A DNA stretch of 64,000 nucleotides, from the NCBI GenBank assembly GCA_022841445.1, contig JALHRM010000001.1, positions 195,777-259,776 on the forward strand, given 5' to 3'. How positions within the stretch are numbered: the stretch's first letter is position 1; every line of letters starts with the position of its first letter. Position numbers and translations under genes: made by a program. Below, one piece after another: positions 1 to 38,907 of this stretch. The notes beneath the pieces were generated by a model. That model saw only the letters and a program-made list of their open reading frames with translations, had not been told where the DNA came from and ran no database searches. This DNA comes from Candidatus Saccharimonadota bacterium (GTDB lineage: Bacteria > Patescibacteriota > Saccharimonadia > Saccharimonadales > UBA10212).

Positions 1-22
1 AAGAAGACAGGAGGTAAATACA

Positions 23-1345: not shown

Positions 1346-1362
1346 TGACCTGTTACAATTGA

Positions 1363-2183: not shown

Positions 2184-4366
2184 GCAGTTTCTTCTGAAGC
2201 TAGCATGCTAAGTAACATCAATCCACGTTCGATGTCCTGAACTTGGAAACGTGCCGCAGTCTCGCCTAGGCCAACTTTTATACTGTAGGCATCATCTGGC
2301 ATAGCATTAAACATATCTTCGTCGGTGTAGTCGTCTCCAATGCCGAGAACAAAGTCGGCCGGGTTGGATTCAATTTTCTTACGTATGGCTGAACCTTTGG
2401 TGATATGTTTGGGTTTTATTTCAATAATTTTATTGCCGCTGTAAACTCCTACATCCTTACCAGCTACCACGTTTAATTCGTGCTTCAACACACTCCTGCG
2501 AGCATAAGCTAGTTCGGTTGGCACATTGCGGTAATGCCACACCAACGCCTTGCTTTTCTCTTCTATTCTTGAACCGGGTGTTCTTTCGGTGAAGCGTTCT
2601 AATATCGGCAGCAGACATTTTTTATCCTGTTCGAAGTCGTAATCCTCATGTCGCCAAGCACCATCATGCTTTATCCAGGCACCATGTTCGGCAACTAACG
2701 ATAATGGAAGATGCCCAAACCATTCCTCAAGTGCCTGATAGGTACGGCCACTGACAATTGAAACAACGTTCCGAGGATCATCAGTAAGTCTTTTTAAAAG
2801 TTTTACAAGACTTTTAGGCGGCGCGGCAAATAGTGGTTCATGCCGGGATACGAATGGACGAAGCGTACCATCATAATCAAGTAACAATAGTCGTTTCTTG
2901 GCTTTTTTGAATGCTAGCACCACTTCAACTAACTGCTTAGATGACAGTAACTTCTTACCCTCTTGAGCCTGCAAGCTTTTAATATTCTGCAGTTGCTCTA
3001 AAAAGTCAGTTGTCCAACGTTCTACATCATAACGAGCAAGCCGACGGCGCATAACACTTAGCCGCTCAGCCTGCTCTTTTTTTGTCATACGGAGCGCACG
3101 TTTAATAGCGTTTGCTACTGCCGAAGTATCGTTGGGATTTATGCGAAGAGCTTCAGGCAGTTCGTCAATGGCGCCCGTCATTTCACTCAGTATCAGAACG
3201 CCAATATCCTTTTGTTTGGATGCCACAAATTCTTTGGCGACTAAGTTCATGCCGTCACGAATGGGCGTCACAAGTGCTACGTCAGATGCTGCATAAAGCG
3301 CCACCAGTTCGTCAAAAGGCAGATTCTTAAATTGGTAAGATATCGGGGTCCAATCAACCGTTGCGTACGTACCGTTAATTCTGCTTACTGCCTGTTCTAC
3401 TTTTTCGCGTAAATCTCGATAAGCATCCACCTCCACGCGCGACGGAACAGCGACGATAATCATTACGGATTTTTTTACATAGGATGGATTTTCTTTTAGG
3501 AAATGTTCAAACGCTTCTAGGCGTTTTAGTATGCCTTTGGAATAGTCTAAGCGATCAACTGACAGTATTATTTTTTGTTTTTTATAGTGGTCTTTAAGTT
3601 CATTTTTGCGTTTCTGAATTTGTCTACTTAAAGCGGCATCCTTAAATTTTTGGTAATCAATGCTTATCGGGAATGAATCCGCCTTAACATTCCTTATGCC
3701 GGTATTAATAATTCCGCTGGAATTTTCCATACCAAGAGTACGGAGCGCAGTCGTCATAAAGTGACGCGCATAGTCATAGACATGGAACCCCAACAAATCA
3801 GCACCGACTAGCCCCGATGCTATTTCCTTGCGGTTCGGAAGCAACCGAAATAATTCATATGACGGAAACGGAATGTGTAGAAAAAATCCGATTGTAGCAT
3901 CAGGCCGAGAGCGCCGAAGCATCGAGGGGAGCAACATAAGATGATAGTCATGCACCCACACTACACTATCCACATTCATACACTGAGTGACGGCTTTTAG
4001 AAAAATTTTATTAACGTCTTTGTAGGCGTTCCAGTAGTCTTTACTGTACTTAGCAAAAGAGTGAAAATAGTGAAACAGAGGCCACAATGTATTGTTGCAA
4101 TAGCCATCGTAAAAATTTTTAACTTCCTCGGTTGTTAGATAAACTGGAAAGTAGCCCATGCCGATAAGCTTCTTCGTAATCAGTCGCTTTTCGGCAGAAG
4201 TAAGGTCGTCTGATGCGATCCCAGGCCACCCAATCCACAATTGTTTTGGTATAGACCCACCAACCGACGCCATAGCCGTTGCCAGGCCTCCGGGACTGGA
4301 GGTAAACACTAGCTTGCCATCTTGCCGAGAAACCGTAACTGGCAAACGGTTTGAAACAATAATCAA
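2180..4366 (-). CDS. otsA: Bifunctional trehalose-6-phosphate synthase (GT20) / trehalose-6-phosphate phosphatase (HAD) fusion
   Basis: N-terminus IIVSNRLPV and HDYHLMLLP are typical of OtsA/TPS. The C-terminal 250 aa carry HAD motif I LLLLDYDGTL and GDDYTDEDMF. TTG start. Confidence 0.85.
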   Translation of the reverse strand: MIIVSNRLPVTVSRQDGKLVFTSSPGGLATAMASVGGSIPKQLWIGWPGIASDDLTSAEKRLITKKLIGMGYFPVYLTTEEVKNFYDGYCNNTLWPLFHYFHSFAKYSKDYWNAYKDVNKIFLKAVTQCMNVDSVVWVHDYHLMLLPSMLRRSRPDATIGFFLHIPFPSYELFRLLPNRKEIASGLVGADLLGFHVYDYARHFMTTALRTLGMENSSGIINTGIRNVKADSFPISIDYQKFKDAALSRQIQKRKNELKDHYKKQKIILSVDRLDYSKGILKRLEAFEHFLKENPSYVKKSVMIIVAVPSRVEVDAYRDLREKVEQAVSRINGTYATVDWTPISYQFKNLPFDELVALYAASDVALVTPIRDGMNLVAKEFVASKQKDIGVLILSEMTGAIDELPEALRINPNDTSAVANAIKRALRMTKKEQAERLSVMRRRLARYDVERWTTDFLEQLQNIKSLQAQEGKKLLSSKQLVEVVLAFKKAKKRLLLLDYDGTLRPFVSRHEPLFAAPPKSLVKLLKRLTDDPRNVVSIVSGRTYQALEEWFGHLPLSLVAEHGAWIKHDGAWRHEDYDFEQDKKCLLPILERFTERTPGSRIEEKSKALVWHYRNVPTELAYARRSVLKHELNVVAGKDVGVYSGNKIIEIKPKHITKGSAIRKKIESNPADFVLGIGDDYTDEDMFNAMPDDAYSIKVGLGETAARFQVQDIERGLMLLSMLASEETA

Positions 4367-4492
4367 TTGTTTGTCTTTGATGGCACTCCCTCCGGTTTAG
4401 CCTATACGTATTTTACCTCTTTAAAGTGTTTATGCGGATGACAACCTCCGTATTCACTCTTTGAGCTGCTACTATTAATAACGGTAATACCG

Positions 4493-5659
4493 ATGAATCT
4501 TTTAGACTTTTTTATACTTTTTATACTTTTTTTAGAAGCCCAGCGCGGAGCCGCGATAGGGCTTATACGAAGCGTATTTTCGCTTGGCGGATTTATCTTG
4601 GGCTTGATTCTGGGTGCATTGCTTGGACCATTTATAGTCGATTTATTCGAGGGTGAGCTACTCAAGTTAATTATTACGTTACTTATTTTATTTGTTTTGG
4701 CGCTGGGAGGTGGACTTTTTGGGCGATACCTTGGCGAAAAGTTATCAAAATATACCGTAAATCTGCATATCAAACGTATAGATAAGTTTTTAGGTGCGTT
4801 ATTTAGTATGATTGTGGCGCTGTTTATCATATGGCTTCTTAGCACAATGCTGGGTGGCGGACCTTCTCAGGCACTTAATAGGCAGTTGCAGTCATCAAAA
4901 ATCATCGGCTTTTCGGACACTGTTTTTCCGCCTGCACCAGCCGTTTTGGATCGAATTTCACGAATCCTTGGGCCGAGCGGCTTCCCCACTGTGTTTATTG
5001 GGCGTGAACCGCTGCCGGCAGAGCCAGTCAAAACGGCAACCAGAGAGCAAGTCAGCCAGGCGCTTGCAGCAGCTGGTGATTCAACGGTAAAAATTGAAAG
5101 TGCTGGCTGCGGAGGATTACTGTTCGGGTCCGGATTTGTGGCCGCGAAAGATTATGTGGTTACAAACGCTCATGTCGTTGCCGGTGTTCGAAGCCCAACG
5201 ATTGTTGACGACAATGGTCGGCATCGTGCCACCACCGTATATTTCAATCCCTCGCTTGATATTGCAGTTTTAAAGACAAATAATCTAGCGGGTGAGCCAC
5301 TAAGTATTGAAGCAACAGCATTACCACGTGGAACTGTGGCAGTAGTGATTGGCTACCCTGGCGGACGCCCTCTCGAAGCCAGCTCTGGCGGACTGCGGCG
5401 ACAAATTACGGCCATTGGGCGTGATATTTATGGAGAAAAGCGAACCGAACGTGATATTTATGAAATCCAGGCAGAAATAGAAGAAGGCAATTCCGGTGGG
5501 CCCCTTATTAGACCTGATGGAACGGTAATTGGAGTTCTGTTTGCTCGATCTGAAACGTTCCAAAACACCGGCTACGCCGTTACGTCTCAGGCTATCGGCC
5601 CGGCGCTCGCCCAAGCCAAAAAATCCGCCGAAGTATCCACTCAAACCTGCGTTCGATAG
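4493..5659 (+). CDS. CvpA-family membrane domain fused to an S1/trypsin-like serine protease (MarP-like)
   Basis: Four N-terminal TM helices, then a chymotrypsin-fold signature: VVTNAHVV (His), DIAVLK (Asp), GNSGGPL (Ser). Confidence 0.8.
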   Translation: MNLLDFFILFILFLEAQRGAAIGLIRSVFSLGGFILGLILGALLGPFIVDLFEGELLKLIITLLILFVLALGGGLFGRYLGEKLSKYTVNLHIKRIDKFLGALFSMIVALFIIWLLSTMLGGGPSQALNRQLQSSKIIGFSDTVFPPAPAVLDRISRILGPSGFPTVFIGREPLPAEPVKTATREQVSQALAAAGDSTVKIESAGCGGLLFGSGFVAAKDYVVTNAHVVAGVRSPTIVDDNGRHRATTVYFNPSLDIAVLKTNNLAGEPLSIEATALPRGTVAVVIGYPGGRPLEASSGGLRRQITAIGRDIYGEKRTERDIYEIQAEIEEGNSGGPLIRPDGTVIGVLFARSETFQNTGYAVTSQAIGPALAQAKKSAEVSTQTCVR

Positions 5660-13709: not shown

Positions 13710-16700
13710 ATGCTACACGAACATCACAAAAAACATAAAACTCGCTCGCATGGCGTACGAAAGGCTGATATGGATCGTACCGTACCAACATACCTTAAAA
13801 ATAAGTTTGTTCTACTGCTAATTGGAGTTATCGTCCTGACAGCCGGAATTCTCGGTTTTACCTATTGGAATGCGGCTAACAATGTGCAGCCTGCAGCGAA
13901 TAGAACAGAGGCAGATGTGTACAACCAAGATCGGGGGACTACTTCTGTTGCCGATTGGACCGCATCGGCCAATTATGATGTTGGTGCTTTTGGAATTATG
14001 ACTAAGGCTAGTAATCAGTTAGTTATAGGGTATAAAGCAGGTCCCAAATACGCCACGGGACAAGAAGCTTGCTGGAATCTGGTTATTCCAAGACCAGCAA
14101 ACGCTACTCAGTATCGCGTCAACTATGTAGATTTTGACTACCTTACTAACGAAGCTGGGGCTAATGGTGTCAAAGTAAAGGTTAATGGGCAGTCACAGAA
14201 TGTAACTATCATAGGGGGTCCTGGGGGTCATCAAGGCGGTGCACAGTTTAATCGTGTAATAAGAGTTGCCACGCCAGGCCTAGTGAACGGTGGCACCGTA
14301 TCAATTTGTAACTATGTTCTTGGTAACAACCAAGGTAATGGTACACACTTGTTTACTGATCAGAAGACTATCTACGTCAGCAAGTACAATATCTTCGGCG
14401 AGAAAGATATTCCTGATGCGCCGGCCGCACCAACAACAGTTAAGGTAACCGGCCAGGTACGAGACTGGAATAATAAGAACCTTGCGAATGTTACTATCGA
14501 CACATGTATTGCTGGTGTTAGCCCGAAGACCAACTCTCAGGGCATATATGAATTCAGCGTACCTCACAGTACTAGCTTTTGTTTGAGAGTAAACACAGGC
14601 GGGGGCGGTATACCAGCTGGCACTACTGGTGTAAAAGCTAACGCCGGGCAAGCCGCCGGATCAATCGCCGCAGCTGGGCAAGGTAGTTACGAATACCAAG
14701 TAGCCGGAGTAGCATGCCGAAACGGTGGCTGCGCGCCAGTACAAGGAACCAACGACCGTGATGTAGATACCGGTTATACTTTTAGTCTTCTAGGCACAAG
14801 TCCAACCGCTCCAGCACCTTCCACTCCAACAACGCTCAAGTGTGCTGGTGGATCAGGTCAAAAAGTCACCGTCATTAATGCCGAAGCGGGAGTCTGCGGT
14901 AATGGTACCGTGCCGTTTACTAGTCCGGCTGACCAAGTAGGAAGCGGTACATCAGTTATTCTGCCAAATACGAATAGCACAGTAGAATATACCTTCTCAG
15001 CTCCGGCTGATGGTAAGTACGTTGCAGCAGCAACGATGAGCAATGACAACCGCTACAAATCTACTGCAGCCAAGTACCGACTTAGCATTGCCACAGCCGG
15101 TGGTGCTCAAAGCAGCTCTAGCGAAGCTCTTACCCGTAAGGGTACATCAGCAACTGCAGCCAGCTATAGCGATTACGGCCTAGATGCTGCTAAGGCAGTA
15201 AATGCCACCAATGGTCAAAGTTTACTAGTGCGTGTTACTTTTTTGGAAGCTCAGAACAGCACCACGAATGGCGACCAGAACTTATACGTTGATCAATTAA
15301 AACTAGTGAAGGTTGGAGAGTTACCAGCTACACCGGGAGCCGGGAGCGGCGGATCAAGCGGCAATACCGGAAATGCTAACGGCACTTGTACAACTCCACA
15401 CACCGCAGTAGCACCTGCTGGTGCAACCCGCATTGAAGCTGAATCTGTTGGTAGCGGCAACCGTTCCGCCAGCGCTGTAGCAGGGCCTATCCATGTCATT
15501 GCCAATACTGCCGCGCTGAACGGAGCTACCGGTTGTCAGGCTGTTCGCCTGGTAACTGATGCCGGATTCGTAAAGTACCAATTTAGTCCAGCAGCCGGCA
15601 GCTATTCGTTAGTTGTCCGTGGTAAAGGTTCTATGAAGATGACATCAGTAAACAGATCGGGCGTCACCCTAAATCGCAATTTTGGAACGGCCTTTACCGA
15701 CCAGAATGTTAGCAGCATTGTAGAATCGGCAACCGCAGAAACAATAAGCGTTAGTGCTAATGAAAAAGTTCAAATAGAAATAAAGCGTAATGGTGGTGAT
15801 GCCTATGTCGACTTTATTGAGTTGAGGAAAGTGGCCGATCCTCCAGCAACCAACAATGGTGGCAATACCGGAAATGCCGGAGGAAGTGCCTTTAGTCCTT
15901 GTACCAACACCGGAAGCGGCCGAACCGATCTTGTACAAGCCGAGCAAGCCTTGTGTGTGAGTGGCGGTGGAGTAGTAGCCGATACCAACGCCGATGGCGA
16001 TAAAGCAGTTGTGTTAAGTCCATCAGGGGCTGCAGTCGAATACAAACTGCGGGCATCTACCACCGGCAGATACAATGCTGTGGCAAAGATGCGCAGTCAG
16101 CTAAACAACAACGGTAAAGTAACATTCGAGGTAATAAGTGAATCCGGTGCAGTGTTAGCTCGACAAACCGGCAAGGCAATAACTCAGAATGCTACGACTT
16201 ATACAAGATATACGGTAAGCAACAATGACAAAGTGGTAGACTTCAATCTTACCGACAACCAGCCTGTTACGATCCGCATCAAATCAGAAAGCTCTCAGCT
16301 GGTCCGAGTAGACAGCTTCAGTCTGAGTCGTGAAGGCAACACAACCCCTAGCGCTGGCAGTGGAACTAGTGGGACAGCCAGCAACACGGTTGCTTGCGCC
16401 AAAGGCGCTTCGCAGCAAGTCTTCACCGTTGAGGCAGAAAACGCTACTTGCGATAACCCTCCAAAAGCGGCAGTATTTAGCGGTCCCGCAAATCAGGTAG
16501 ATGGCGCCTTTGGTGGGCAGGCGGTCATCTTAGCGGCTAATAATTCTTCAGTTGAATACACCTTTATTGCTCCTGAGGATAATGATTATATTGCAGGGGC
16601 AAGGGTCAGTAACGACAATCGTTTTGTTGGCACCGAACGAGCAAAATTTGTATTGTCTATAGATTCAGGTGGTGCGCTCCGGCAGTCACCAGAGCAAACT

Positions 16701-18977
16701 GCCGACGGAGCGGCAGCTGGTTCGAAAGCCTCAAATTACAAGGATCGCCGAGCTACAAACCAAGTAATGCCAGGAATAAAAAAAGGTGCTGCAGTTAGAG
16801 TTAAAATAGTCTTCACCAATAACAACGGCGAGAGCGCAGAAGGCAAAGACCGCAACTTGTTCGTTGACAGATTAATGCTCATACCGACTAAGGGAGCTGC
16901 TGCAAATAATCCGCCTACTAGCGGGAGCACAGCGCCCGTTGCTTGCAGCGGTGCTGGTAGTGGCCGTAGTGACTATGTAGAGGGTGAGCAAGCCCAGTGC
17001 TCAAGCGGCGTTATTGTAAGCGATGATGCGAAAGCCGCTGGTCAAAAGGCCGCGCTACTACGTGCCCAGAATAATAGCCTTACATACACCTTCAAAGTAA
17101 CGGAGCCTGGCTTGTACAGATCTGCCGCCAGCATGAGAAGTCAGCCAGGAACTACCGGAAAAGTCGAAATGCAGTTTTCTAAACTAACTCCTGGTCAGAG
17201 CCCTAGTATCAAAACTCAAGCCAATAAAGCCGTGGGCGGCAGTGCGAGTTATTCGAGATACACAGTAAGATCAGGCGACGGGCTAGCAACAGACCCTCCA
17301 CATGAGTTCAGTGCAAACGCTGGTGATGAACTAACTATCTCGGTGAAAAGCTCAACTAATGTTGATGTGCTTGTTGACTACTTGTACTTGAGCAAAGCGC
17401 CAGTATCGGTTGTGAATTGCAGCAATGATGCTCCAAACGCCGCTGTTGTAGAAGCCGAAAGAAGTCTATGCACCGGCCGCGTCGGGGTGGTGAGTTCGGC
17501 AAACGCGTTTAATACTGGAGCATTTGGCGACAAGTCAGTATTTCTGTTCACAGATAATTCGTCCGTTCAATATACCTTTACGGTAAGCGAACCCGGCAAA
17601 TACGCTGCCGTTGCTCGCGCCAGTAACGACAATCGTTTTGTTGCAGGTGCAGGTGAAACTGCTAAATTTGACCTAAGAATTGGCAAGGTAGGCGGAATCG
17701 CCAAAGCTGCCAGCTTCACCACGAAAGCACGTGCTACCAGTACACCCACATGGGATAAATTCACTCTCGGCGAAGCTAACAGACTTTGCTTACAAGCAGG
17801 TGACAAAGTGACAGTGAGAGCATCATTCACTAATGACAACAGCGGCTCGACAGAAACAAGCGACCGCAACCTAATTGTCGACCAGTTAGAACTACTCAAA
17901 ACTGGTGCTGCTACAAACTGCAATACACCACCTACCACTGGCGGATCAAGCACTGATACGCCTCCAGCTAATAACCCTAACGGTCCAGAAGCAACATCGG
18001 CTCGCTACGTGCGCGCCGAAAACGCCAATGCCGGCTGCGGTCGCTTAACACAGCAAACAACTAGTAGTGAAATACTAAGTCCGTTTGACTGTAGGAGTCG
18101 GTTGCAAAGCGACAATCAGGCAGAAAATAAAAAAGCTTTGTCAGTAACCGCAAATAAGAGTTTTGTCACACACGAGTTTAACCAAGTAAAGATTGACGGC
18201 GTGTATGCAGTAGGCTTTATGCTCAAAGCAGAAAAGCCGGTTTGGCCTGGTGCAAAAGCACCAAAAGCCACGCTGTATATTAACAACAGTAAGGTTAATA
18301 CTTTCGATGTAGCCACCGACAAATACCGGTTCTATAACACGAGAATTGAAGTTCAGACCAACGACAAACCCAAAGTACGAATCGTAATGGAAGATCAAAA
18401 CAGTGTGCTGAACACTGAAAAGTTGTGGATTGATTCTATAAGACTAATTCGCACAGCAAATGTACCACCAGAAGAGCCAGTTGTTGTTACGCCCGCTAAT
18501 CAAACCGGAGGAATACCAGCACCACAATACACGCCTTGCAGTTCTAACTGTGGTGAAAATACCCCCGAAATCTCCGCAGACCGACAGCAACAAGTTTGCG
18601 CCCCAGGACAAAAGCGTGTTACCCCGAGAGTTCCCGCCTTTCCGGGTCAGTACATCTGTGTTACCCCAATCCAAGTACAACCTCCTACATACGTAAATCC
18701 ACATAGCATAACCTACGGAAGTTGTCCAAGTGGGTACTTGATAGATTTGAGTAATTCTAGTAAGTGTTATAGATACTTTTGCTTCACTGGTACTTTGTCT
18801 GCTGACGGCCGACGCTGTGTGGGCATAGGTCTTGTGAGCTCAACTACTGATGCCATCAGAGATACGAAAGACCGCGCAGTGCAATCCGTCAATTGTCCTT
18901 CCGGATACTCAGCAGAAGGACTACGCTGTAAAAGCAAGTCAAGCCAGATATTCAATACTCCAGGTCTTTCAGGTTAA
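13710..18977 (+). CDS. Giant (1755 aa) membrane-anchored surface protein with seven tandem CBM6/35-like modules and a Cys-rich C-terminus
   Basis: N-terminal TM anchor (FVLLLIGVIVLTAGILGF). Two module types in the order A-B-B-A-B-A-B, starting at about 14835, 15380, 15895, 16389, 16939, 17411 and 17989. Type A carries VEAE...SVEYTF...SNDNR...DRNL(F/I)VD(Q/R)L. Type B carries (I/V)(E/Q)AE...YxxxV...(V/I)D. A likelier start is ATG 13770, which is preceded by AAAGG. Confidence 0.85.
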   Translation: MLHEHHKKHKTRSHGVRKADMDRTVPTYLKNKFVLLLIGVIVLTAGILGFTYWNAANNVQPAANRTEADVYNQDRGTTSVADWTASANYDVGAFGIMTKASNQLVIGYKAGPKYATGQEACWNLVIPRPANATQYRVNYVDFDYLTNEAGANGVKVKVNGQSQNVTIIGGPGGHQGGAQFNRVIRVATPGLVNGGTVSICNYVLGNNQGNGTHLFTDQKTIYVSKYNIFGEKDIPDAPAAPTTVKVTGQVRDWNNKNLANVTIDTCIAGVSPKTNSQGIYEFSVPHSTSFCLRVNTGGGGIPAGTTGVKANAGQAAGSIAAAGQGSYEYQVAGVACRNGGCAPVQGTNDRDVDTGYTFSLLGTSPTAPAPSTPTTLKCAGGSGQKVTVINAEAGVCGNGTVPFTSPADQVGSGTSVILPNTNSTVEYTFSAPADGKYVAAATMSNDNRYKSTAAKYRLSIATAGGAQSSSSEALTRKGTSATAASYSDYGLDAAKAVNATNGQSLLVRVTFLEAQNSTTNGDQNLYVDQLKLVKVGELPATPGAGSGGSSGNTGNANGTCTTPHTAVAPAGATRIEAESVGSGNRSASAVAGPIHVIANTAALNGATGCQAVRLVTDAGFVKYQFSPAAGSYSLVVRGKGSMKMTSVNRSGVTLNRNFGTAFTDQNVSSIVESATAETISVSANEKVQIEIKRNGGDAYVDFIELRKVADPPATNNGGNTGNAGGSAFSPCTNTGSGRTDLVQAEQALCVSGGGVVADTNADGDKAVVLSPSGAAVEYKLRASTTGRYNAVAKMRSQLNNNGKVTFEVISESGAVLARQTGKAITQNATTYTRYTVSNNDKVVDFNLTDNQPVTIRIKSESSQLVRVDSFSLSREGNTTPSAGSGTSGTASNTVACAKGASQQVFTVEAENATCDNPPKAAVFSGPANQVDGAFGGQAVILAANNSSVEYTFIAPEDNDYIAGARVSNDNRFVGTERAKFVLSIDSGGALRQSPEQTADGAAAGSKASNYKDRRATNQVMPGIKKGAAVRVKIVFTNNNGESAEGKDRNLFVDRLMLIPTKGAAANNPPTSGSTAPVACSGAGSGRSDYVEGEQAQCSSGVIVSDDAKAAGQKAALLRAQNNSLTYTFKVTEPGLYRSAASMRSQPGTTGKVEMQFSKLTPGQSPSIKTQANKAVGGSASYSRYTVRSGDGLATDPPHEFSANAGDELTISVKSSTNVDVLVDYLYLSKAPVSVVNCSNDAPNAAVVEAERSLCTGRVGVVSSANAFNTGAFGDKSVFLFTDNSSVQYTFTVSEPGKYAAVARASNDNRFVAGAGETAKFDLRIGKVGGIAKAASFTTKARATSTPTWDKFTLGEANRLCLQAGDKVTVRASFTNDNSGSTETSDRNLIVDQLELLKTGAATNCNTPPTTGGSSTDTPPANNPNGPEATSARYVRAENANAGCGRLTQQTTSSEILSPFDCRSRLQSDNQAENKKALSVTANKSFVTHEFNQVKIDGVYAVGFMLKAEKPVWPGAKAPKATLYINNSKVNTFDVATDKYRFYNTRIEVQTNDKPKVRIVMEDQNSVLNTEKLWIDSIRLIRTANVPPEEPVVVTPANQTGGIPAPQYTPCSSNCGENTPEISADRQQQVCAPGQKRVTPRVPAFPGQYICVTPIQVQPPTYVNPHSITYGSCPSGYLIDLSNSSKCYRYFCFTGTLSADGRRCVGIGLVSSTTDAIRDTKDRAVQSVNCPSGYSAEGLRCKSKSSQIFNTPGLSG

Positions 18978-19058: not shown

Positions 19059-21401
19059 CTACCACCACTCTAATGTACTGCCGGTACGAACAGTGATGGC
19101 CGAGCCGTTTAATTCTGATGCAAATCTCAGCTGTACTGTACCGTTTGCTGTCGGCAAAATACTGCCTTCAATAACTGCAATATTTCCAGTAGTTGCCGCC
19201 GAAGTTGCACTACAACCCGCTGGCGAATCATTGCCATTGCCTGTTCGACTTGTACCTGTGGTAGTTGTAAGTGAGGAGCTTTGCATATATGTGAAATATG
19301 TGTTTGTGGGGCCGGTTGCAGCCCAAGCAGACCCTGTTGTGGTAGCTGCAGCAGTATAGTTGATAACTGCGTAGAAACGATACACAACACCTGTAGTAAC
19401 AGCAAAACTTAAACCTGTAAGATGCGTAAACGTGCATGCTCCGGCACTATCTATGACGTCAGCAGCCAGTATCGTCCTGTTACGTGTAATACAGTCTTTC
19501 CATGCACCAGCCTCAAAACATCTAAACTTTCCCAAGTTACTATTGTAATACTGCCCACCATCAACACCCGTAGGGTCGCCAGCAGAGGTCTTAGTATCAA
19601 GCACAAGCAGCGTACCTATAGTGTCAGAAGTCCCTAGCACAATATTGCTGGTTCCACCTGGTGTTAGGTTAATCGCTCCCGAAGTTGTAGTCTGTATGTT
19701 CACGTTGCCGCTTGTTGCGTTTATGGTCGCATTGCCACTTCCGGCATTAAGAGTTAGCGAACTGGTTGTGTTGGTCGATCCAATCGTAACCGACTGCGCA
19801 GCAGCACCTGTTGCAAATTGAATAGTATGAGCGGTGGCGCCATTGAATAACGCCGCAACACCCGTGCCGTTTTCAATTGTTAAACTTGTACTTGTTGTAC
19901 CGATAGTTATGCCACCTGACGGACTAATCGCAAATACGTCTGTGCCGCCATTCTGAACGGCAAAGCGGCCATTACCGCCACAGGCAGTTGTACATTGAAG
20001 ATCAATAAGTACATTGGCGTCTGTAGCCGTGTCGGTCGCGTTGATCACAAGATCATGAGTATCTGTAGTATTTAGTGTTGGATTATTATTATAGGCTGAT
20101 TGTAGTGTAGCTCCGCTCACGGCAGATGTTGTCGAGTTATATTCAACCGTCCAATAAACGGTAAAATCATTCGTCGTGGGTGCCATACCCACCGTATCAA
20201 AAGCAATACCAATTGTATCGCCAGCTGAAAATGTTACCACCCCGGGGTCAAGCGCTGTTGCGGATTCACGCTGTACCGTACTACTCATACTACACGCCCC
20301 TGCCCCCACAGACACACCATTCACCCGCCATCGTAGATTAAGTGTTCCCGCAGTAACGTTAGCGGTGTTTTTGATTAGACAGGTCCTAAAACTCCCTCCA
20401 GCAGGTGCCGTAAAGCCTGTTATTCCGGCTGTATTTGACACCGCAGTTGCAGTTGTAAATATGAGCGTCTCTACTACCGCTCCAGTCACATTAGCCCCCA
20501 CATTAGCCAGTCCAGATGTAAAGCTAGCCGTAGAATTGCCACTTGTCAGACAATCTGACCATGCGCCGCTCTGGAAACAACGAAACGTTCCGGAATTGCT
20601 ATTGTAATACATACCGCCGTTAACGCCCGTAGGGTCACCGGCGGTATTCTTTGTGTCTACCACTAACTGAGCGGCTGAAGCATCAGCCGTCGGATTGCCA
20701 ATATACACATTCGCTGCACTGGTATCTACTGTCAATAAGGGATTTGATGACTGACTTTGAATCTGAAATCCTATCGATGAATCAGCCTGATTACGGAACA
20801 AAGCACTGCCGTTATTTGCCAGTTGGAATATAGCCGTTCCGCTACGCTGTACATCGAAAATTAATGCCGTACCACCGGTCTTGTTTATAGACAGGCTGGC
20901 ATTTGTTGTAGAGCCATCCGTTTGAGTCCCCTGTCCTAGCTGTACCAAGTTAGTACTATCAAGACCGTCAATAGTGTCAGAATTGAAGGCATACGGACTA
21001 GCAGTAAGCTGTATTCGGGGGGACATTTCGGGATCCGCTCCCACCTTCATACTCAAGTAAAGCGCCGACAGGTTAAAGTTAACACTGCCAGGTAAGCTAG
21101 TCACGCTACCAAGCGCTACCCGAAAAATACCATCATTGACCGCAACTGTTGCTTGAGTTTCTTCCCATAAGCAAGAGTTAGCACAAGGGCTAGCGGTATC
21201 TGCAGTTGGATCTGTGTATACCCTGAATCGTATAGAGTAACTGCCATTGGTAACGTTCGTGCCATCCGGATTTGTCAGTTTACCCTGGAAATTTATGGTC
21301 GGATTAATGGCAGCTTGAGTTTTTGGGGTAAATTGAAACCATAGCCCGCCAAGGATAGCGAACAAAGTTAGCGGCAAAACCCACATCCACTTCTTAGGCA
21401 T
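19059..21401 (-). CDS. 780-aa secreted fibre-like protein with internal two-fold module duplication
   Basis: Signal peptide. N-terminal head INFQGKLTNPDGTNVTNGSYSIRFRVY...LWEE...YLSMKVG...EMSPRIQLTASPYA. Two copies of DTK(N/T)(T/S)AGDPTGVxGGxYYNSNxGxFRCFxxGAWxDC(L/I)T at 20544-20663 and about 19486-19611, each followed by a beta-sandwich-like domain. Confidence 0.8.
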   Translation of the reverse strand: MPKKWMWVLPLTLFAILGGLWFQFTPKTQAAINPTINFQGKLTNPDGTNVTNGSYSIRFRVYTDPTADTASPCANSCLWEETQATVAVNDGIFRVALGSVTSLPGSVNFNLSALYLSMKVGADPEMSPRIQLTASPYAFNSDTIDGLDSTNLVQLGQGTQTDGSTTNASLSINKTGGTALIFDVQRSGTAIFQLANNGSALFRNQADSSIGFQIQSQSSNPLLTVDTSAANVYIGNPTADASAAQLVVDTKNTAGDPTGVNGGMYYNSNSGTFRCFQSGAWSDCLTSGNSTASFTSGLANVGANVTGAVVETLIFTTATAVSNTAGITGFTAPAGGSFRTCLIKNTANVTAGTLNLRWRVNGVSVGAGACSMSSTVQRESATALDPGVVTFSAGDTIGIAFDTVGMAPTTNDFTVYWTVEYNSTTSAVSGATLQSAYNNNPTLNTTDTHDLVINATDTATDANVLIDLQCTTACGGNGRFAVQNGGTDVFAISPSGGITIGTTSTSLTIENGTGVAALFNGATAHTIQFATGAAAQSVTIGSTNTTSSLTLNAGSGNATINATSGNVNIQTTTSGAINLTPGGTSNIVLGTSDTIGTLLVLDTKTSAGDPTGVDGGQYYNSNLGKFRCFEAGAWKDCITRNRTILAADVIDSAGACTFTHLTGLSFAVTTGVVYRFYAVINYTAAATTTGSAWAATGPTNTYFTYMQSSSLTTTTGTSRTGNGNDSPAGCSATSAATTGNIAVIEGSILPTANGTVQLRFASELNGSAITVRTGSTLEWW

Positions 21402-22580: not shown

Positions 22581-23693
22581 TTATGCGCGCTCGCCGCGGT
22601 CACGAGACGATGACTTTGCGGAGTTTTTCTTCCCTGAACCGAATAGCTGCCTGCCTGCACTAAAGAAACCAAATCCAACGACTAGTAAGATCAAAAATAC
22701 GATAAGCAACAGTTTCCAGGGAATAACCCAAAAACTAACTTCTGTAGTTATGGGAACATCCCGGGTGCCATCGTTATACACTGCCACCATTTTTGCGGTG
22801 TACTTGCCAAAGCGGAATTTGCTGGCATCAGACCAGTTCCATTCTAGTTTTCGCTCTGGTTCCACATTAGCCGGACCAGAAATTGTGCGGAACACCGGAA
22901 ACCCTTCTGCCCAATTAGAGTTGAGTTCGCGCGTTACTCCGGGCAGCAGGTAAGAGCGCTTGTCGTTGAGCGGGATGGTAGAAATCGGCGTTGCGTCATC
23001 ACTGTTTCTTTGGATAAAGATGTTCCCAAGCGGCTGGATGATTGTATTGCCGGTGTTTTTTACCTTAAAACTTAACTCGGCTGGCAGATACTCGTACACT
23101 CTGTGCTTGGACGAAAATTCCAACACTTCAAATTGCCGTTTTGCGCCCGGCTTGTCAACTGAAAGTAGGGTAAATACAGCGACAGAGCCTTCGATAGCAC
23201 GTTGCCCAGGCTTAGGTTTTGGTGGATTTGCCCTGTTGATAACTATTGCAAAACTATAGCTAAAGCCAGCATCTTCAGGTGGACTGACAGTGATTTTTTG
23301 GGTGTACCATTCACCTGGTTTGATGTTAAATAGAGGGTTTTGAATTTCGACCCAGTCTATGACTTCCTTAGGGGCTGATGTGCCAAGTGACACTTCGCCG
23401 TCACCATTATTAACACTGAATGTGCGCAACTGAGCCCTTAAGTTTTCGGCCTTGCTTCCCTGGTTGTTGATGCGCAGTTCAATCGTTTTTGTTTTGCCAG
23501 GCTGCAACGTTTCGACAATCGGCGAAGGCGTTACCTGCAGTGAAAAGTCGCGGTCTTGATCCTGTGCAGACACTTTAGAAATGATAATTGGAGATACAAC
23601 GCCGAGCAGCAGCGCAAACGCGGTCAGAAGCAGTGCAGAATTTTTACCCCATTTCATAAGAATTATAAGTAGTATAGCAAAAGACTGCCTCAT
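22581..23693 (-). CDS. DUF916/DUF3324-like (CscA-like) membrane protein, copy 1
   Basis: DFSLQVTPSPIVETLQPGKTKTIELRINNQG resembles the DUF916 N-terminal strand pattern. The second half KVKNTGNTIIQPLGNIFI...GKYTAKMVAVY resembles DUF3324. C-terminal TM WKLLLIVFLILLVVGFGFF. The start may be ATG 23657 (MKWGKNSALLL...). Confidence 0.55.
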   Translation of the reverse strand: MRQSFAILLIILMKWGKNSALLLTAFALLLGVVSPIIISKVSAQDQDRDFSLQVTPSPIVETLQPGKTKTIELRINNQGSKAENLRAQLRTFSVNNGDGEVSLGTSAPKEVIDWVEIQNPLFNIKPGEWYTQKITVSPPEDAGFSYSFAIVINRANPPKPKPGQRAIEGSVAVFTLLSVDKPGAKRQFEVLEFSSKHRVYEYLPAELSFKVKNTGNTIIQPLGNIFIQRNSDDATPISTIPLNDKRSYLLPGVTRELNSNWAEGFPVFRTISGPANVEPERKLEWNWSDASKFRFGKYTAKMVAVYNDGTRDVPITTEVSFWVIPWKLLLIVFLILLVVGFGFFSAGRQLFGSGKKNSAKSSSRDRGERA

Positions 23694-23706
23694 ATCGGCA
23701 GTCTTT
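23680..23706 (-). terminator. Perfect 10-bp stem / 7-nt loop hairpin downstream of the 345-aa gene (putative attenuator or terminator)
   Basis: AAAGACTGCC-TCATATC-GGCAGTCTTT. On the minus-strand RNA the stem is followed by UUUUGCUAU. The loop contains the first in-frame AUG of ORF 22581-23693. Confidence 0.45.
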
Positions 23707-23760
23707 GCTTATAAATCTTCGTTATATGTCGTTGTTGTCTAAAGCTATATGTCTTAACGT

Positions 23761-24798
23761 CTAGAACAAGCCAGCACCGGTAACGGTAATCGTGTCGGTG
23801 TAATCTGTAGCTGCTGGTGTTGTTGCAGCGATTGTGGCATTGTTTGTCAGTGTTAGTACAGCGTTGTCAGCGGTACCGTTCGATGATGCAAGAGTACGGA
23901 GTGATGTGTCCAAACCACCACCTTGTCCTGCTCCACCAACAAAGGCTGCAGCAACAGTAATAGTACCGCTACCGCCGGTTTGGCTTTGAGTGACACCGGT
24001 GTTGTAGCCTTCAGTACCAGTACTGAGCGTGCTGTTACTACCTGGTGTTGTCGAGGCAATAGTCTTTGATGCGGCGGCAGAAGTAAGACCAGCGTTGCTG
24101 TCACGTGCCCATGCATACCAACCATTGGTAGCATTCGTGTTAATTGTAACTGTTCGTGGAGTAGGACTGCTCACAACCGAGCTAGTGCTTAGCGTGCCAA
24201 GAGCGTCTGTGTTACCACTTAGAGCAAAGCTAAATGTTGGCGTAACAGTAGCTGTTACGACGATCTGGTCATCGCTAATGCTTGCTGTAGCGTAAGTACC
24301 GCTATCGATTGTAGCTGGACCGTTATCCCGGGTTGTGACAGTTCCAGTGTTGTTAGCTGTGGCTGCTGCCTTAATAGACAGCGCTGCAGAGTTTGTCCAG
24401 TTGAAACAGTATAATGTTCCGACTGTTAGGTCTGTGCTTGGGAACGTTACCGTCTGACCACTCGCTGCTGAAGCCGTACCTATACCAGGCCAGGCACTGG
24501 CGCCTGATGGCCAAGCCAAGTTAGTAGTACTTACTGTCCAGTTACCCGTTGTAGTGCTGACAGTGTAGCTTGTCGGAAACACAACTTGGACGTCGTTTTC
24601 CGTAGCAACCGTTGCAGCTTGCGCACAGACGGTGCCAGTACTTGCAGTACTTGTTTTGACTCGGTCAAAACGTACCAACGTTCTAGACAACGTGGCAGCT
24701 TCTGCGCGACTGTTAATCGCCAGAGGCAACGCTGCAACCAGAACCAATAGAAAAGCCAGGCCAATAGCCCGCCAATCAACGAACCGTAAGGTTTGCAT
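23761..24798 (-). CDS. Secreted beta-rich Thr/Ser/Ala-rich protein with WxL-/pilin-like C-terminal module; candidate major structural subunit
   Basis: Signal peptide with AEA-A cleavage site. C-terminal module VTPTFSFALSGNTDALGTL...NGWYAWARDSNAGLTS...DYTDTITVTGAGLF is paralogous to the C-terminus of ORF 24907-25965. Confidence 0.5.
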   Translation of the reverse strand: MQTLRFVDWRAIGLAFLLVLVAALPLAINSRAEAATLSRTLVRFDRVKTSTASTGTVCAQAATVATENDVQVVFPTSYTVSTTTGNWTVSTTNLAWPSGASAWPGIGTASAASGQTVTFPSTDLTVGTLYCFNWTNSAALSIKAAATANNTGTVTTRDNGPATIDSGTYATASISDDQIVVTATVTPTFSFALSGNTDALGTLSTSSVVSSPTPRTVTINTNATNGWYAWARDSNAGLTSAAASKTIASTTPGSNSTLSTGTEGYNTGVTQSQTGGSGTITVAAAFVGGAGQGGGLDTSLRTLASSNGTADNAVLTLTNNATIAATTPAATDYTDTITVTGAGLF

Positions 24799-24863
24799 GT
24801 TTGTTTTTCTCGCTTTCGTTAGTTTTTGTTTTTGTTTTAGTAGCTTACGCTTACTGATTAAGG

Positions 24864-24891
24864 AGTATACATATCAATTTTGTAAATGCAA
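24864..24891 (-). promoter_or_regulatory. Putative sigma-70-type promoter for the 345-aa subunit gene
   Basis: On the minus strand: TTGCAT (24891-24886), 16-nt spacer, TATACT (24869-24864). It sits about 65 nt upstream of the ATG in the largest intergenic gap of the locus. Confidence 0.35.
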
Positions 24892-24906: not shown

Positions 24907-25965
24907 TTAGAAATCCATGGCGGCAATAAATGTTAGCGTGTCTGAATAGTCATTGGCGCTTGGCACGGTGCTCTCTGTTTTAGCCTTTAATCGCAGTGTA
25001 GAACTCGCGTTTGAAATAGGACCAGAAGTAGTGGTAAACGGACTTGGTGAGTTAGATAGTATCCCCACATTATCCACAGCTCCGTTAAACGGAGCTACAG
25101 CTGCAAGGGGGCCACCGCTTGTTTGAGAGACGCTAATCACCTGAGCGCCGTAACCACTTAAAGCCGATGCCAAGTTGGCAGTTGCAGATGTAATAGTATA
25201 GCTTGCCAGCAGGCTCGTAAGGCCGTTGTTTTGCCCTTGCACATAAATTGATCCTCCGTTCAACGCGTTACTGCTCAGACCAAGCAACGCGTCTTCGTCG
25301 GCAGCCTGTACGACTCCTGGTGCAAGCCCACTAAACCCTATATTAAATGGCGGAATAGAGGTCGCCGACGTTGCAACCGAAAAAGTAATGCTTGTTTGCA
25401 CGGTTGCTGCCGATGCGGTTGGACTAAAACCTGATTCGCTAAATTTGCCTTGGATTGCCTTAACTTTGACGGTATATGTGGTTGCTGGTTCCAACCCCAG
25501 AATCAGGAAGCCACTTGCTCCACCCCAGGCTGCGTACGTTTGATAGTTAGCAATGCTAAGATTTGTGCCAATAGCGTTATCGGTCTGCACGTAACTAGTA
25601 GTCGATACAAATGCATCCGGGCTAATAGCAATAAGATACCGCGTATCCGACGGATTACCAGACGTATTAAGCGTGAGCCGTAGACGATTATAATTATTGG
25701 CAGGATTAACGAGTGTTGGAGCCTGAGGCACATTAGTATTTTGAGTTGCCTGCAGACCGCCTACAACCGTGTTATTTGTAGAATTAATAGTATCTCCACC
25801 ACCTTGCGAACCGGCCAGGCCATTCACTTGATAGTTTGTACTACTGCTTGTACCGCCACCATTGCCAAAGTCATACGATTTTAAGGTGTAGTTTGTGCTG
25901 GTAGGTGCAGAAGCAAGCAGCCCAGCCGAAAGCAGAGAAACAATACTCCCCAAGATGAGATCCAT
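24907..25965 (-). CDS. Secreted protein: SxNY-repeat N-terminus + fibronectin-III-like domain + WxL-/pilin-like C-terminal module
   Basis: STNYTLKSYDFGNGGG...STNYQVNGLAG. FN3-like block APTLVNP...RLRLTLN...GLEPATTYTVKVKA. C-terminal ITFSVATS...GGSIYVQGQNNGLTS...DYSDTLTFIAAMDF. Confidence 0.5.
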   Translation of the reverse strand: MDLILGSIVSLLSAGLLASAPTSTNYTLKSYDFGNGGGTSSSTNYQVNGLAGSQGGGDTINSTNNTVVGGLQATQNTNVPQAPTLVNPANNYNRLRLTLNTSGNPSDTRYLIAISPDAFVSTTSYVQTDNAIGTNLSIANYQTYAAWGGASGFLILGLEPATTYTVKVKAIQGKFSESGFSPTASAATVQTSITFSVATSATSIPPFNIGFSGLAPGVVQAADEDALLGLSSNALNGGSIYVQGQNNGLTSLLASYTITSATANLASALSGYGAQVISVSQTSGGPLAAVAPFNGAVDNVGILSNSPSPFTTTSGPISNASSTLRLKAKTESTVPSANDYSDTLTFIAAMDF

Positions 25966-26587: not shown

Positions 26588-27577
26588 CTACTGACCCTTA
26601 TGGTTTTTTGGTAATACTGCACCGACCAAACGCCGGCTTTGATAAAATTCCCCACCCCAAAATCCGAGAGCAGCAAACACGGCAGCCCCATACAGCGTCC
26701 ACATTGTAAGCGGCACTGAGCCAGCGCCGGGCAAATCAACGCTGCCAATAGTAAGCGGCACCCCGCCGTCAACATATGTAATCGCTACCAGGTTCATGCG
26801 CGCCGACTGATTGCTGGTATCCGTGAGCGTCAACCCAGCTTCGTACCCAGCCAGAATACTGCCCACGTATATATGAAGTAACTTCTTTTTGCCTGGCTGA
26901 TCGTAGACCAGATTGCTTGTCTCGCCATCACCCCATTCAACCTTTAGCTGATACGGAGGCCGGCCGCCTTCGATATATATGGTAAGTTCCGATGGTTTAT
27001 TTGGTTTAAAGACAAAAAACGTCTTATCGGCTAACAACCTTAGGGCAGGGTAGTTTACTCCTGATGAATTGTTGTTACCCGGTGCCCCGTCGTTTGTATC
27101 GCCCGGCGACAATGTCTTGGGTGGCTGATACATAATGTTCAGTGTCGGTCCGTCCGGACCGCTATCATCCGTAATATTGATGATTTTTGGAGTAATGGCA
27201 TTATTACCGCGGTTAATGAAGATACTGATCGAGAAAGTGCCATTCGCCTGGCAGATTGATGAACCCAGCATCGTTCCGCCCCTCCATAACGACACGATAG
27301 ATTGCGGCTCGGTAACCGGACAGGTGCCAGAAACTGCTATGCTTCTTGTTTCAAACACCTGATTGTTCTGTGGATTTGTGATAACCGCCGGGCTCGAAGG
27401 AATCTCGGCCGAAATTTTGGCGGTTACTTTATATTCGTCAGCGGCAACTTTCTGGATAAACAACAAACTTAGACCAACAACCAGCAAAACAACTACAAGT
27501 CCACGATAAGACGTATGGTGGTGCGGCAAGGGTTTGGCAGTGTGTTTATGATGCTGCAGCTTAAGAAGGGTTCGCAT
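26588..27577 (-). CDS. Bitopic protein with His-rich leader, N-terminal TM, Ig-like and PKD-like domains, C-terminal TM (hypothetical)
   Basis: MRTLLKLQHHKHTAKPLPHHHTSYRGLVVVLLVVGLSLL. Ig-like block ITNPQNNQVF...VSGTC. PKD-like block YQLKVEWGDGETS. C-terminal helix MWTLYGAAVFAALGFWGG. ATG 27577 is preferred over 27637. Confidence 0.5.
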   Translation of the reverse strand: MRTLLKLQHHKHTAKPLPHHHTSYRGLVVVLLVVGLSLLFIQKVAADEYKVTAKISAEIPSSPAVITNPQNNQVFETRSIAVSGTCPVTEPQSIVSLWRGGTMLGSSICQANGTFSISIFINRGNNAITPKIINITDDSGPDGPTLNIMYQPPKTLSPGDTNDGAPGNNNSSGVNYPALRLLADKTFFVFKPNKPSELTIYIEGGRPPYQLKVEWGDGETSNLVYDQPGKKKLLHIYVGSILAGYEAGLTLTDTSNQSARMNLVAITYVDGGVPLTIGSVDLPGAGSVPLTMWTLYGAAVFAALGFWGGEFYQSRRLVGAVLPKNHKGQ

Positions 27578-37861: not shown

Positions 37862-37902
37862 ATTCTAACAGTCCCCTTATAAGCCTTGCTATACTAAACA
37901 TA

Positions 37903-38907
37903 ATGAAGATTCTAGTCACTGGCGGAGCTGGGTTTATAGGTTCAAACTTCGTCCATTATTTACGCAAAAACTACCCTGATTACCAGATAACCGTTGTTGA
38001 CAAGCTGAATCAGCAGGGCAATATTGAAAATCTTAGGCCAATCATGGAAGAGATAGCTTTCCATGAATTCGATTTGGTCGAAGAATCAAAACTACTGCCG
38101 ATATTTGAAGCTGGCCTGGATTATGTCGTACACTTTGCCGCCGAAACAAATGTAGACCGTTCTATAGAAGATCCCGACAACTTTGTAAGCAGCAATGTAC
38201 TGGCTACCAACATTCTATTGCGATTAAGCCGTGACCACGGCGTAAAGCGTTTCCACCATGTTTCCACCGATGAGGTTTTCGGCAGTCTAGAACTAGGCAC
38301 CGATGATAAATTCAACGAAACTACACCTTACGATCCTCGCAGTCCGTATTCTGCTACCAAGGCAGCCAGTGACCACCTGGTACGTTCGTACTTCCACACC
38401 TATCAGCTCGATGTCACAATCAGCAACTGCTCAAACAACTATGGGCCTTACCAGGTACCTGAAAATATTGTGCCAGTGTTTACTCTTATGGCGCTAAATG
38501 ATAAACCGTTAACCATTTACGGCGACGGCAAAAGTGTCCGTGATTACCTTTTTGTGCTTGATCACTGCCGTGCAATTGACCTCATCCTACATAAAGGCAA
38601 GGCTGGCGAAACATACTGCGTCGGTGGGGGGCAGGAACAAAACGGTATTCAAATAGCCAATTCAGTACTATCTATCACCAGCAAATCAACCGACCTTAAG
38701 AAATTCGTTACCGACCGACCGGGCCATGATCGTCGCTACGCCATCGATTATTCCAAACTTGAAAAAGAACTTGGATACAAACCAAGTGTGACATTTGAAG
38801 AAGGCCTCCGGCAAACTATAGACTGGTATCAGCAAAACGAAGAATGGTGGAAACCATATATGGAGCGTTTTTACGTGCCTCAGTTCATGAAAGAAGACGT
38901 CGAGTAA
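37903..38907 (+). CDS. rfbB: dTDP-glucose 4,6-dehydratase
   Basis: KILVTGGAGFIGSNF, HVSTDEVFG, YSATKAASDHL. Confidence 0.92.
   Translation: MKILVTGGAGFIGSNFVHYLRKNYPDYQITVVDKLNQQGNIENLRPIMEEIAFHEFDLVEESKLLPIFEAGLDYVVHFAAETNVDRSIEDPDNFVSSNVLATNILLRLSRDHGVKRFHHVSTDEVFGSLELGTDDKFNETTPYDPRSPYSATKAASDHLVRSYFHTYQLDVTISNCSNNYGPYQVPENIVPVFTLMALNDKPLTIYGDGKSVRDYLFVLDHCRAIDLILHKGKAGETYCVGGGQEQNGIQIANSVLSITSKSTDLKKFVTDRPGHDRRYAIDYSKLEKELGYKPSVTFEEGLRQTIDWYQQNEEWWKPYMERFYVPQFMKEDVE

Follow-up and report, generated by a model that had tools for sequence, protein, structure and literature searches.

A Pam-type pilin gene of a Saccharimonadia bacterium is probably a transcription unit of its own, with a terminator-type hairpin fused to a putative promoter of the next gene

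In the chaperone-usher operons of Escherichia coli, such as pap (papA), fim and K88/K99, a stem-loop or terminator lies past the gene of the major pilin, the pilin mRNA is more abundant than that of the assembly and minor-subunit genes further along, and the subunits are joined by donor-strand exchange with the help of dedicated chaperones. The present analysis concerns a gene for a 345-amino-acid (aa) secreted protein, together with the control sequences on both sides of it, in a stretch of 64,000 nucleotides (nt) from an ultrasmall Candidatus Saccharimonadota bacterium (assembly GCA_022841445.1, contig JALHRM010000001.1), which is referred to as the window. The closest described system is the Pam pilus operon of Candidatus Mycosynbacter amalyticus (Troman et al., 2026, bioRxiv 10.64898/2026.03.03.709456). 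According to the same preprint, PamA ranks second and PamB ninth in the whole-cell proteome of M. amalyticus (its Table S1), conservation among the Pam pilins is highest in the linker and the C-terminal domain, and a tail-fibre-like gene is co-localised with pam operons; the preprint contains no analysis of promoters or terminators. Our reading of the window, to which we give a probability of roughly 0.7, is that the 345-aa protein is a Pam-type pilin whose gene is organised as its own transcription unit, with a promoter, a terminator and a downstream promoter fused to that terminator.

Judged from the predicted proteins, the composition of the gene cluster matches that of the Pam operon of the candidate phyla radiation (CPR). 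In both cases the hosts belong to the CPR/Saccharimonadia, the secreted pilins have an N-terminal beta-sandwich, a conserved linker and a C-terminal immunoglobulin-like (Ig-like) domain, and several paralogous pilins occur in one cluster. Both clusters also encode two chaperone-like proteins that carry a membrane helix at the C-terminus and a PamR-like protein that has a C-terminal helix as well, and both have a tail-fibre-like gene as a neighbour. The position of a chaperone-like gene behind the pilin gene fits the PamB-PamC adjacency, which was deduced from the order of accessions. The differences should be considered as well. The window organism is distant, with its PamR-like open reading frame (ORF) of 349 aa reaching E = 1.1e-33 and 116 bits against the model CPR_pilus_PamR, under the curated cut-off of 300; the window pilin has no direct match to a Pam model and holds one conserved cysteine pair (C58/C131), where three were reported for PamB; the genes are transcribed in the order PamR-like (349 aa), 187 aa, 352 aa, 345 aa, two chaperone-like genes (358 and 376 aa) and, at the end, 780 aa; and the ORFs examined near the cluster included no ATP-synthase genes. 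Pam-type pili assemble by donor-strand exchange, and the window pilin, as a putative member of this type, would do so too.

The pilin unit, all elements of which lie on the minus strand of the window, is made up as follows, in the order of transcription:

24891-24886, minus strand: -35 hexamer TTGCAT, followed by a 16-nt spacer
24869-24864, minus strand: -10 hexamer TATACT, with TG directly upstream at 24871-24870
24863-24799, minus strand: leader of the pilin mRNA; from the position of the -10 hexamer, transcription is predicted to start at about 24857
24798-23761, minus strand: coding sequence of the 345-aa pilin, with the stop codon TAG at 23763-23761
23708-23677, minus strand: extended stem of the hairpin
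23706-23697 and 23689-23680, minus strand: hairpin arms AAAGACTGCC and GGCAGTCTTT, respectively, around the loop GATATGA (23696-23690)
23703-23683, minus strand: G+C-rich core of the hairpin, GACUGCC/GGCAGUC
23679-23671, minus strand: extended -10 box TGCTATACT of the chaperone-like gene, overlapping the U-tract of the terminator
23667-23662, minus strand: second -10-like hexamer, TATAAT, 4 nt before the ATG at 23657

The gap between the pilin coding sequence and the upstream gene, which ends at 24907, is 108 nt long. A preliminary description of this DNA had placed in it an own promoter of the form TTGCAT-16 nt-TATACT, and these hexamers are indeed present and conserved in position. For the comparison, 79 orthologous loci were taken from species-representative genomes, and the 150 nt upstream of the pilin start were scored with the pattern TTGNNN-16..18-NANNNT against TTGCAT / YAYAMT. 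A score of at least 10, which served as the threshold, was reached in 50 of 78 orthologous Saccharimonadia loci as compared to 30 of 800 random 150-nt windows, with the -10 hexamer ending 23-68 nt (mostly 33-58 nt) ahead of the pilin ATG. Most of the weak-scoring loci keep a recognisable variant in place, such as the TTGACA-17-TATGCT of the most distant loci. The clade's own promoter consensus is TTGCNT-17-YAYAMT, and the window sequence agrees with 8 of the 12 positions of the E. coli consensus and with all positions of the clade pattern TTGCNT / YAYAMT. As the elements stand in the same place across the orthologs, we take the two hexamers to be the window's copy of a conserved promoter. The predicted leader of about 58 nt is A-rich and essentially unstructured (positions 24860-24796 fold with -4.3 kcal/mol, z = -0.9); it contains no clear Shine-Dalgarno sequence in the window, and many orthologs carry GGAGG or AGGGGGA there. 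The pilin gene is the sole gene of the locus with both a full -35/-10 promoter and a long unstructured leader.

A separate observation concerns the leaders themselves. A motif AAGCATAA / ATAAGCA (GTAAGCGTAAGC in the window, 24852-24838, minus strand) is found about 10-17 nt past the pilin -10 hexamer, which places it at the extreme 5' end of the predicted leader, in the loci labelled L001, L030, L035-L037, L039, L041, L043, L049, L051, L053, L056, L059, L061, L065 and L068. GCATAA occurs in 24% of the leaders (1.6% of background windows), and TTATGC, over or just upstream of the -10 hexamer, in 32% (1.9%). Possible roles of the motif are to stabilise the 5' end, to bind a regulator or to act as a promoter-proximal element.

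At the other end of the gene, the hairpin reported in the preliminary description was found at 23706-23680, as a perfect 10-bp stem with five G-C pairs and a 7-nt loop that begins 54 nt past the TAG stop codon. Its folding energy is low for its composition, with z about -5.5: the 27-nt stretch 23704-23678 (an 8-bp stem plus 4 nt) yields -13.5 kcal/mol (z = -5.3), the 35-nt stretch 23708-23674 yields -18.6 kcal/mol (z = -5.7), and for both, none of 200 shuffled sequences was as stable. By our own stem count, this is the sole perfect stem of at least 9 bp with a loop of 3-9 nt in the 64-kb window. Nonetheless, 0.53 stems of at least 10 bp are expected per window on average in first-order Markov simulations, so the hairpin alone is statistically not decisive, and the weight rests on its position and on its conservation in other genomes.

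That conservation is one of structure and place. When 17 hairpin regions were aligned with MAFFT and passed to RNAalifold, no consensus structure was obtained, the stems were not alignable, and TTTG.TATA.T alone was invariant. As the stems could not be aligned, each locus was folded separately and compared with control windows, which were random windows of matched length from the same loci; a compact hairpin closed by G-C pairs, with at least 3 T in the next 4 nt, was counted as terminator-type. It should be noted that this relaxed finder also yields many matches inside genes across the window, and its results are meaningful solely against the matched controls. Between the pilin and chaperone genes, such a hairpin with T-tail is present in 26 of the 54 loci with a gap of at least 40 nt, as compared to 47 of 540 controls. 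Conservation of the stem, which had been proposed as a check, thus holds for the hairpin with its T-tail in these loci but not for an alignable sequence: the stems (GACUGCC, CCGCCCC, CCGCGGC, CACCUGUCG, CUCCCC and others) are unrelated among the loci. A structure and a T-run that are kept while the sequence is not have the signature of an intrinsic terminator, and we read the hairpin as one. A search of Rfam gave just a sub-threshold, terminator-like match to IS128 (E = 0.18). Of the U-rich tail that had been described, the UUUU stands, but the remainder is the extended -10 box TGCTATACT. Past the G+C-rich core, the tail reads UUUUGCUA, with 4 contiguous U and 5 U in 8 nt; the relaxed criterion accepts this tail and a generic scan does not list it.

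In one subclade without the terminator (L035, L039, L041, L043, L051, L057, L059, L065 and L067), the pilin stop and the chaperone start are separated by a conserved spacer of about 50 nt, AAGAGAGCAGTGTGATG-TCCAACCAT...ATGGTTGCGTA, and the first chaperone codons (MSNH..WLR) form a small conserved inverted repeat, AACCAT...ATGGTT. This spacer may be a different control element.

Directly past the hairpin, the window reads T-G-C-TATACT (23679-23671), then ACTTATAATTCTT, then the ATG at 23657. In the interval from the pilin stop to the chaperone start, 25 of 69 loci contain a box TGNTAYAMT; 18 of these 25 also carry the terminator hairpin, and in most the box is fused to the T-run as TTT-TGYTATAMT. 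The next in-frame start, nearly always ATG, lies 7-13 nt past the hexamer in 21 of the 25 box loci, most of which have no in-frame start upstream of the box, and the N-termini that result from the starts past the box are normal signal peptides (M-K/R-...). Given this placement in the orthologs, the chaperone-like gene very probably starts at ATG 23657 and not at 23693, which makes the gap downstream of the pilin gene 103 nt, close to the 108 nt of the upstream one. The gene would accordingly be read from its own promoter into a leaderless or near-leaderless mRNA; the hexamer TATAAT at 23667-23662 is a possible alternative -10 element for a truly leaderless start. In the preliminary description, the accessory genes lay behind partial termination. 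The terminator-type hairpin bears this out in part, but since a promoter overlapping the U-tract precedes these genes, they need not depend on read-through.

Similar boxes were also found elsewhere in the window. TGNTAYAMT occurs 11 times, which is not above chance (9.9 expected), and 5 of the 11 boxes stand 6-13 nt before the ATG of an ORF of at least 100 codons, a placement with a background of 1.7% (binomial p = 6.6e-7). These five are, from box to ATG:

1351-1368, plus strand: box preceding ATG 1366
37887-37905, plus strand: box preceding ATG 37903
31812-31791, minus strand: box preceding ATG 31793
25981-25963, minus strand: box preceding ATG 25965 of the 352-aa pilin paralog
23679-23655, minus strand: box preceding ATG 23657 of the chaperone-like gene

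A similar layout is shown by the PamR-like gene (TATAAT-7-ATG 27576; 27589-27574, minus strand) and by the 780-aa gene (TAGTAT-8-ATG 21401; 21415-21399, minus strand). For three minus-strand genes, the start of the longest ORF is probably wrong, with the true ATG in each case a few nt past a -10 box, and the probable revisions are:

31805 to 31793, minus strand: start of the O-antigen-ligase-like gene
27637 to 27576, minus strand: start of the PamR-like gene
23693 to 23657, minus strand: start of the chaperone-like gene

Judged by these placements, leaderless or near-leaderless transcription seems to be general in this Saccharibacteria genome. A full-text literature search found the word 'leaderless' and this phylum together only in an unrelated review on streptococci.

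The preliminary description had seen a pilin-type subunit in the 345-aa protein, and its signal peptide, its two beta domains and the Pam-like neighbourhood agree with this. The protein has more than 1877 homologs, and with the top 120 of them it shares 69-81% identity, two near-identical sequences aside; by their names and locus records, nearly all come from Saccharibacteria/Patescibacteria. An exhaustive search of 50%-identity representatives yielded 593 clusters at E <= 1e-3. The signal peptide, judged by eye, consists of a hydrophobic helix at residues 9-28 followed by SRAEA|A. With a diverse alignment, AlphaFold2 gave a model (predicted local distance difference test, pLDDT, 95.9; predicted template modelling score, pTM, 0.75) of a signal helix and beta domains at 35-171 and 189-345, while with a shallow alignment of 31 sequences pLDDT was 53.6, the C-terminal domain was unfolded and the Foldseek matches were uninformative. 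In the diverse alignment of 113 sequences conservation is strongest in the linker and the C-terminal domain, with D177, V185 and F189 of the linker invariant or nearly so and the stretch TNAxNGWxxW ... DYTDTxTVxGAGxF in the C-terminal domain. R43, Y130 and C131 of the N-terminal domain are kept across the alignment, and C58 as well among close homologs. The model NF058581 (CPR_Pam_pilin_C) of NCBIfam matches 2 of the 113 full-length relatives, with E-values up to 1.6e-5. Neither PamA (PDB 25PZ) nor PamB (25QA) was among the matches in the PDB copies searched by sequence or by fold. The protein is therefore filed as a putative secreted Pam-type pilin. By its size and by the chaperone gene directly behind it, it appears most like PamB, and we infer that it is probably the major shaft subunit of this bacterium.

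The pilin module also occurs in other arrangements. In L046 (~3900-5070), L064 (~3800-3950) and L078 (~3850-4010), a second pilin paralog (...DYTDTITV.GAG.F) lies directly upstream, which makes a tandem duplication with a promoter-like sequence before each copy. The whole module forms the C-terminal end of proteins of 784-1641 aa (P0161, P0163, P0164, P0188), and the N-terminal domain alone opens proteins of 770-985 aa (P0200, P0214, P0222, P0225, P0239, P0256-P0262, P0270). Such fusion proteins could use the pilin fold as the base of a tip adhesin or of an anchor.

In our proposed mechanism, a sigma-70-type promoter TTGCAT-16-TATACT (24891-24864) would start the pilin transcript near 24857 with its open leader. 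The G+C-rich hairpin followed by UUUU would act as an intrinsic terminator that ends or strongly reduces this transcript, and would probably also protect or stabilise the 3' end of the pilin mRNA. The U-tract runs into TGCTATACT, and this box, which would not need a -35 element, would restart transcription before ATG 23657, with the chaperone pair re-initiated at an independent and probably lower level. The output of pilin would in this way be uncoupled from that of the assembly factors and could far exceed it, while the terminator would shield the weak downstream promoter from occlusion by polymerases that come from the strong upstream one. The transcription start, the 3' end, the strengths of promoter and terminator and the high expression are what we infer from the DNA. 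Indirect signs fit a high expression of the pilin: its effective number of codons (Nc, 47.8) is the second lowest of 49 ORFs, as compared to 54.9-57.9 for the adjacent pilin-paralog and chaperone-like genes; in the closest loci the pilin is 75-80% identical as compared to 40-57% for the flanking genes; and the published abundance of Pam pilins points the same way.

Several results weigh against this reading and need to be considered when it is used. Measured on the consensus of E. coli, the -35 hexamer TTGCAT agrees with TTGACA at only 3 of 6 positions, and a generic promoter and terminator scan listed neither the pilin promoter nor the terminator. It missed the promoter because of this low agreement and the hairpin because it counted the tail after the maximal stem, and it was replaced by the clade-specific scans with controls. 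The U-tract is short, with UUUU (23682-23679) followed by GCUAUACU, and may give weak or partial termination. The terminator is missing from about half of the orthologous loci, and loci with a pilin-chaperone distance of 20 nt or less are without it; being absent so often, it is not essential to the system. The distance from box to ATG in the window, 13 nt, lies at the long end of the range. As for the protein, it has no match in Pfam or NCBIfam and none to a Pam model even at E = 10, searches of PDB sequences with the single protein and with the 113-sequence profile found no match, and Foldseek against the PDB (to April 2026) returned generic tandem Ig-like proteins alone (TM-score <= 0.27), among them integrin legs, MSCRAMM adhesins and PapG.

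The same sequences can be explained in other ways. The protection of a 3' end by a stem-loop after processing is the mechanism of the papA and puf operons, and the hairpin might likewise be mainly an element of mRNA stability or processing, with read-through into the chaperone genes and accumulation of the protected pilin message. The outcome in stoichiometry would be the same, the short and interrupted U-tract would be in keeping with it, and so would the strong hairpins without a T-tail past the pilin gene in L044, L062, L076 and L031. We consider this unlikely, as 26 loci have at least 3 T straight past the hairpin, about 5.5 times the control rate, and as the downstream genes' own promoter makes read-through unneeded, although a role in stability and termination are not mutually exclusive. 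The preliminary description had raised another option, in which the hairpin throttles the translation of the next gene by holding a start AUG (23693) in its loop and codons 2-4 in its stem. This ATG is in frame, with no stop before ATG 23657, but the start lies past both hairpin and -10 box in 25 orthologous loci, most of them without an upstream in-frame start; the 12 extra residues, MRQSFAILLIIL, would put a second hydrophobic stretch ahead of the normal signal peptide MKWGKNSALLLTAFALLLG...; and there is no sequence like a ribosome-binding site ahead of the loop AUG. The loop ATG is, as far as the comparison of loci goes, a coincidence of an open upstream frame, and if it is not the start codon the basis of a translational throttle is removed, which leaves that option very little probability.

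We give similarly little credit to the inverted repeat as an operator, at which a dimeric regulator over the -35 position of the extended -10 promoter would repress the chaperone genes. The repeat does cover about 4-30 nt upstream of the TATACT hexamer, where repressor sites are frequent; still, between loci the arm sequences differ entirely and what is kept is the stem-loop geometry with the T-run, a pattern that points to an RNA structure, and no regulator gene is conserved alongside. It remains to consider chance matches in an AT-rich spacer, with the cluster as one plain operon. Within the window this would be acceptable, as one perfect 10-bp hairpin per 64 kb is within the expectation of the simulations, the promoter pattern occurs 2 times (1.35 expected) and the TGNTAYAMT boxes are about as many as expected. 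However, the elements stand at the same positions in many orthologous loci, far over the control rates, and the boxes are placed non-randomly before ATGs, so that the comparative data largely refute chance, which we regard as highly improbable. A Pam-type pilin gene with its own promoter, terminator and fused downstream promoter thus remains our preferred reading.

The other genes of the cluster, and the promoter of the pilin paralog, are as follows:

26588-27576, minus strand: PamR-like (RbmA-like) protein with a C-terminal membrane helix (NCBIfam CPR_pilus_PamR); its probable start is ATG 27576, 7 nt past TATAAT
between the PamR-like and 352-aa genes, minus strand: 187-aa ORF
25981-25973, minus strand: putative leaderless-type promoter TGTTACAAT of the 352-aa gene, 7 nt before its ATG
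24907-25965, minus strand: 352-aa paralogous pilin-like protein, with a C-terminal domain in common with the 345-aa protein
22581-23657, minus strand: 358-aa chaperone-like protein (PamC/PamD-like) with a signal peptide and a C-terminal membrane helix
21445-22575, minus strand: 376-aa second chaperone-like protein with a C-terminal membrane helix, 5 nt past the 358-aa gene
19059-21401, minus strand: 780-aa tail-fibre-like protein at the end of the cluster (NCBIfam Bdello_MAT_N)

The 352-aa and 345-aa proteins are 32% identical over the C-terminal 168 aa (E = 9e-12). The two chaperone-like proteins are paralogous (E = 2e-6), and both have a signal peptide as well as a membrane helix at the C-terminus; the match of Bdello_MAT_N to the 780-aa protein (E = 9.6e-7) is below the cut-off. 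A gene for a secreted protein of 1755 aa with CBM60-like and cupredoxin-like domains (13710-18977, plus strand) converges on the end of the pilus cluster; this is probably another surface or adhesion protein. The strongest codon bias of the window (Nc 44.0) is that of a secreted 173-aa protein (23-544, plus strand), which is rich in Asn, Thr and Gly and has a hydrophobic segment at its C-terminal end. Behind its gene, at 593-615, stands a compact bidirectional terminator-like hairpin, CTGCCTGCC-AAAAAA-GCGGGCAG-TTTTT, and a sortase gene comes next (554-1345, plus strand), whose called start is probably too far upstream. This may be a further case of a surface protein that is highly expressed and whose gene has its own terminator.

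Beyond the Pam operon, the locus can be compared with three further systems. As in the chaperone-usher operons, the gene of the major subunit is followed by a stem-loop or terminator; unlike in them, the downstream genes would have their own promoter, fused to the terminator, instead of depending on read-through, and their mRNA would be leaderless or nearly so. There is no usher and no outer membrane here, the chaperones are membrane-anchored, and no homology was detected at the sequence level. In Actinobacteria and Deinococcus, leaderless transcription starts from promoters with an extended -10 element or a -10 element alone (for example PMC4633059 and PMC4007540). The likeness lies in a -10 element of the TANNNT type or extended by TGn, at a fixed 6-13 nt before the ATG and without a Shine-Dalgarno sequence, and the differences are the Saccharibacteria host and the welding of the box to the U-tract of a preceding terminator. 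Finally, the WxL/WxLIP (DUF916-DUF3324) loci of Firmicutes are also small clusters with secreted beta-rich surface proteins and a two-domain partner anchored by a C-terminal helix. The label DUF916-like, earlier given to the 358-aa protein, is not retained: Pfam WxLIP_PGBD matches it at E = 0.03 (14.8 bits, cut-off 27.3), below threshold, and with Foldseek the WxLIP structure 9i25 was marginal (rank 31, TM-score 0.17). A relationship of the pilins themselves to WxL domains, considered for their GW..W and DYTDT.TV motifs, found no support in Pfam scans of the 113 family members, none of which matches WxL (PF13731).

A terminator past the gene of a major pilin is a classical principle and an ordinary way to make more of a subunit than of its helpers. 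New here, if modest, are the expression architecture of the CPR Pam system, itself described very recently, a probable fusion of the terminator with a leaderless promoter, and evidence, from the placement of boxes, that promoters of the leaderless type may be common in this Saccharibacteria genome. We tentatively extend this, at somewhat less than even odds, to the proposal that the pam loci of Saccharimonadia use a compact terminator-promoter fusion and that leaderless transcription from TGnTAYAMT is a general mode of expression in Saccharibacteria that has not been described before. If so, start codons would be mis-called in many CPR genomes, and every gene of the pilus cluster would be an individually tuned unit. 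The first description of Pam pili dates from 2026, and some CPR episymbionts apparently use these pili to reach their hosts. The 345-aa family, widespread and unusually conserved, probably provides the major subunit across a large group of Saccharimonadia. Several start codons are corrected here, and common leaderless transcription, as suggested by these data, would matter for how genes are called in CPR genomes. As genetic tools for Saccharibacteria, the conserved promoter and terminator sequences could also be of use.

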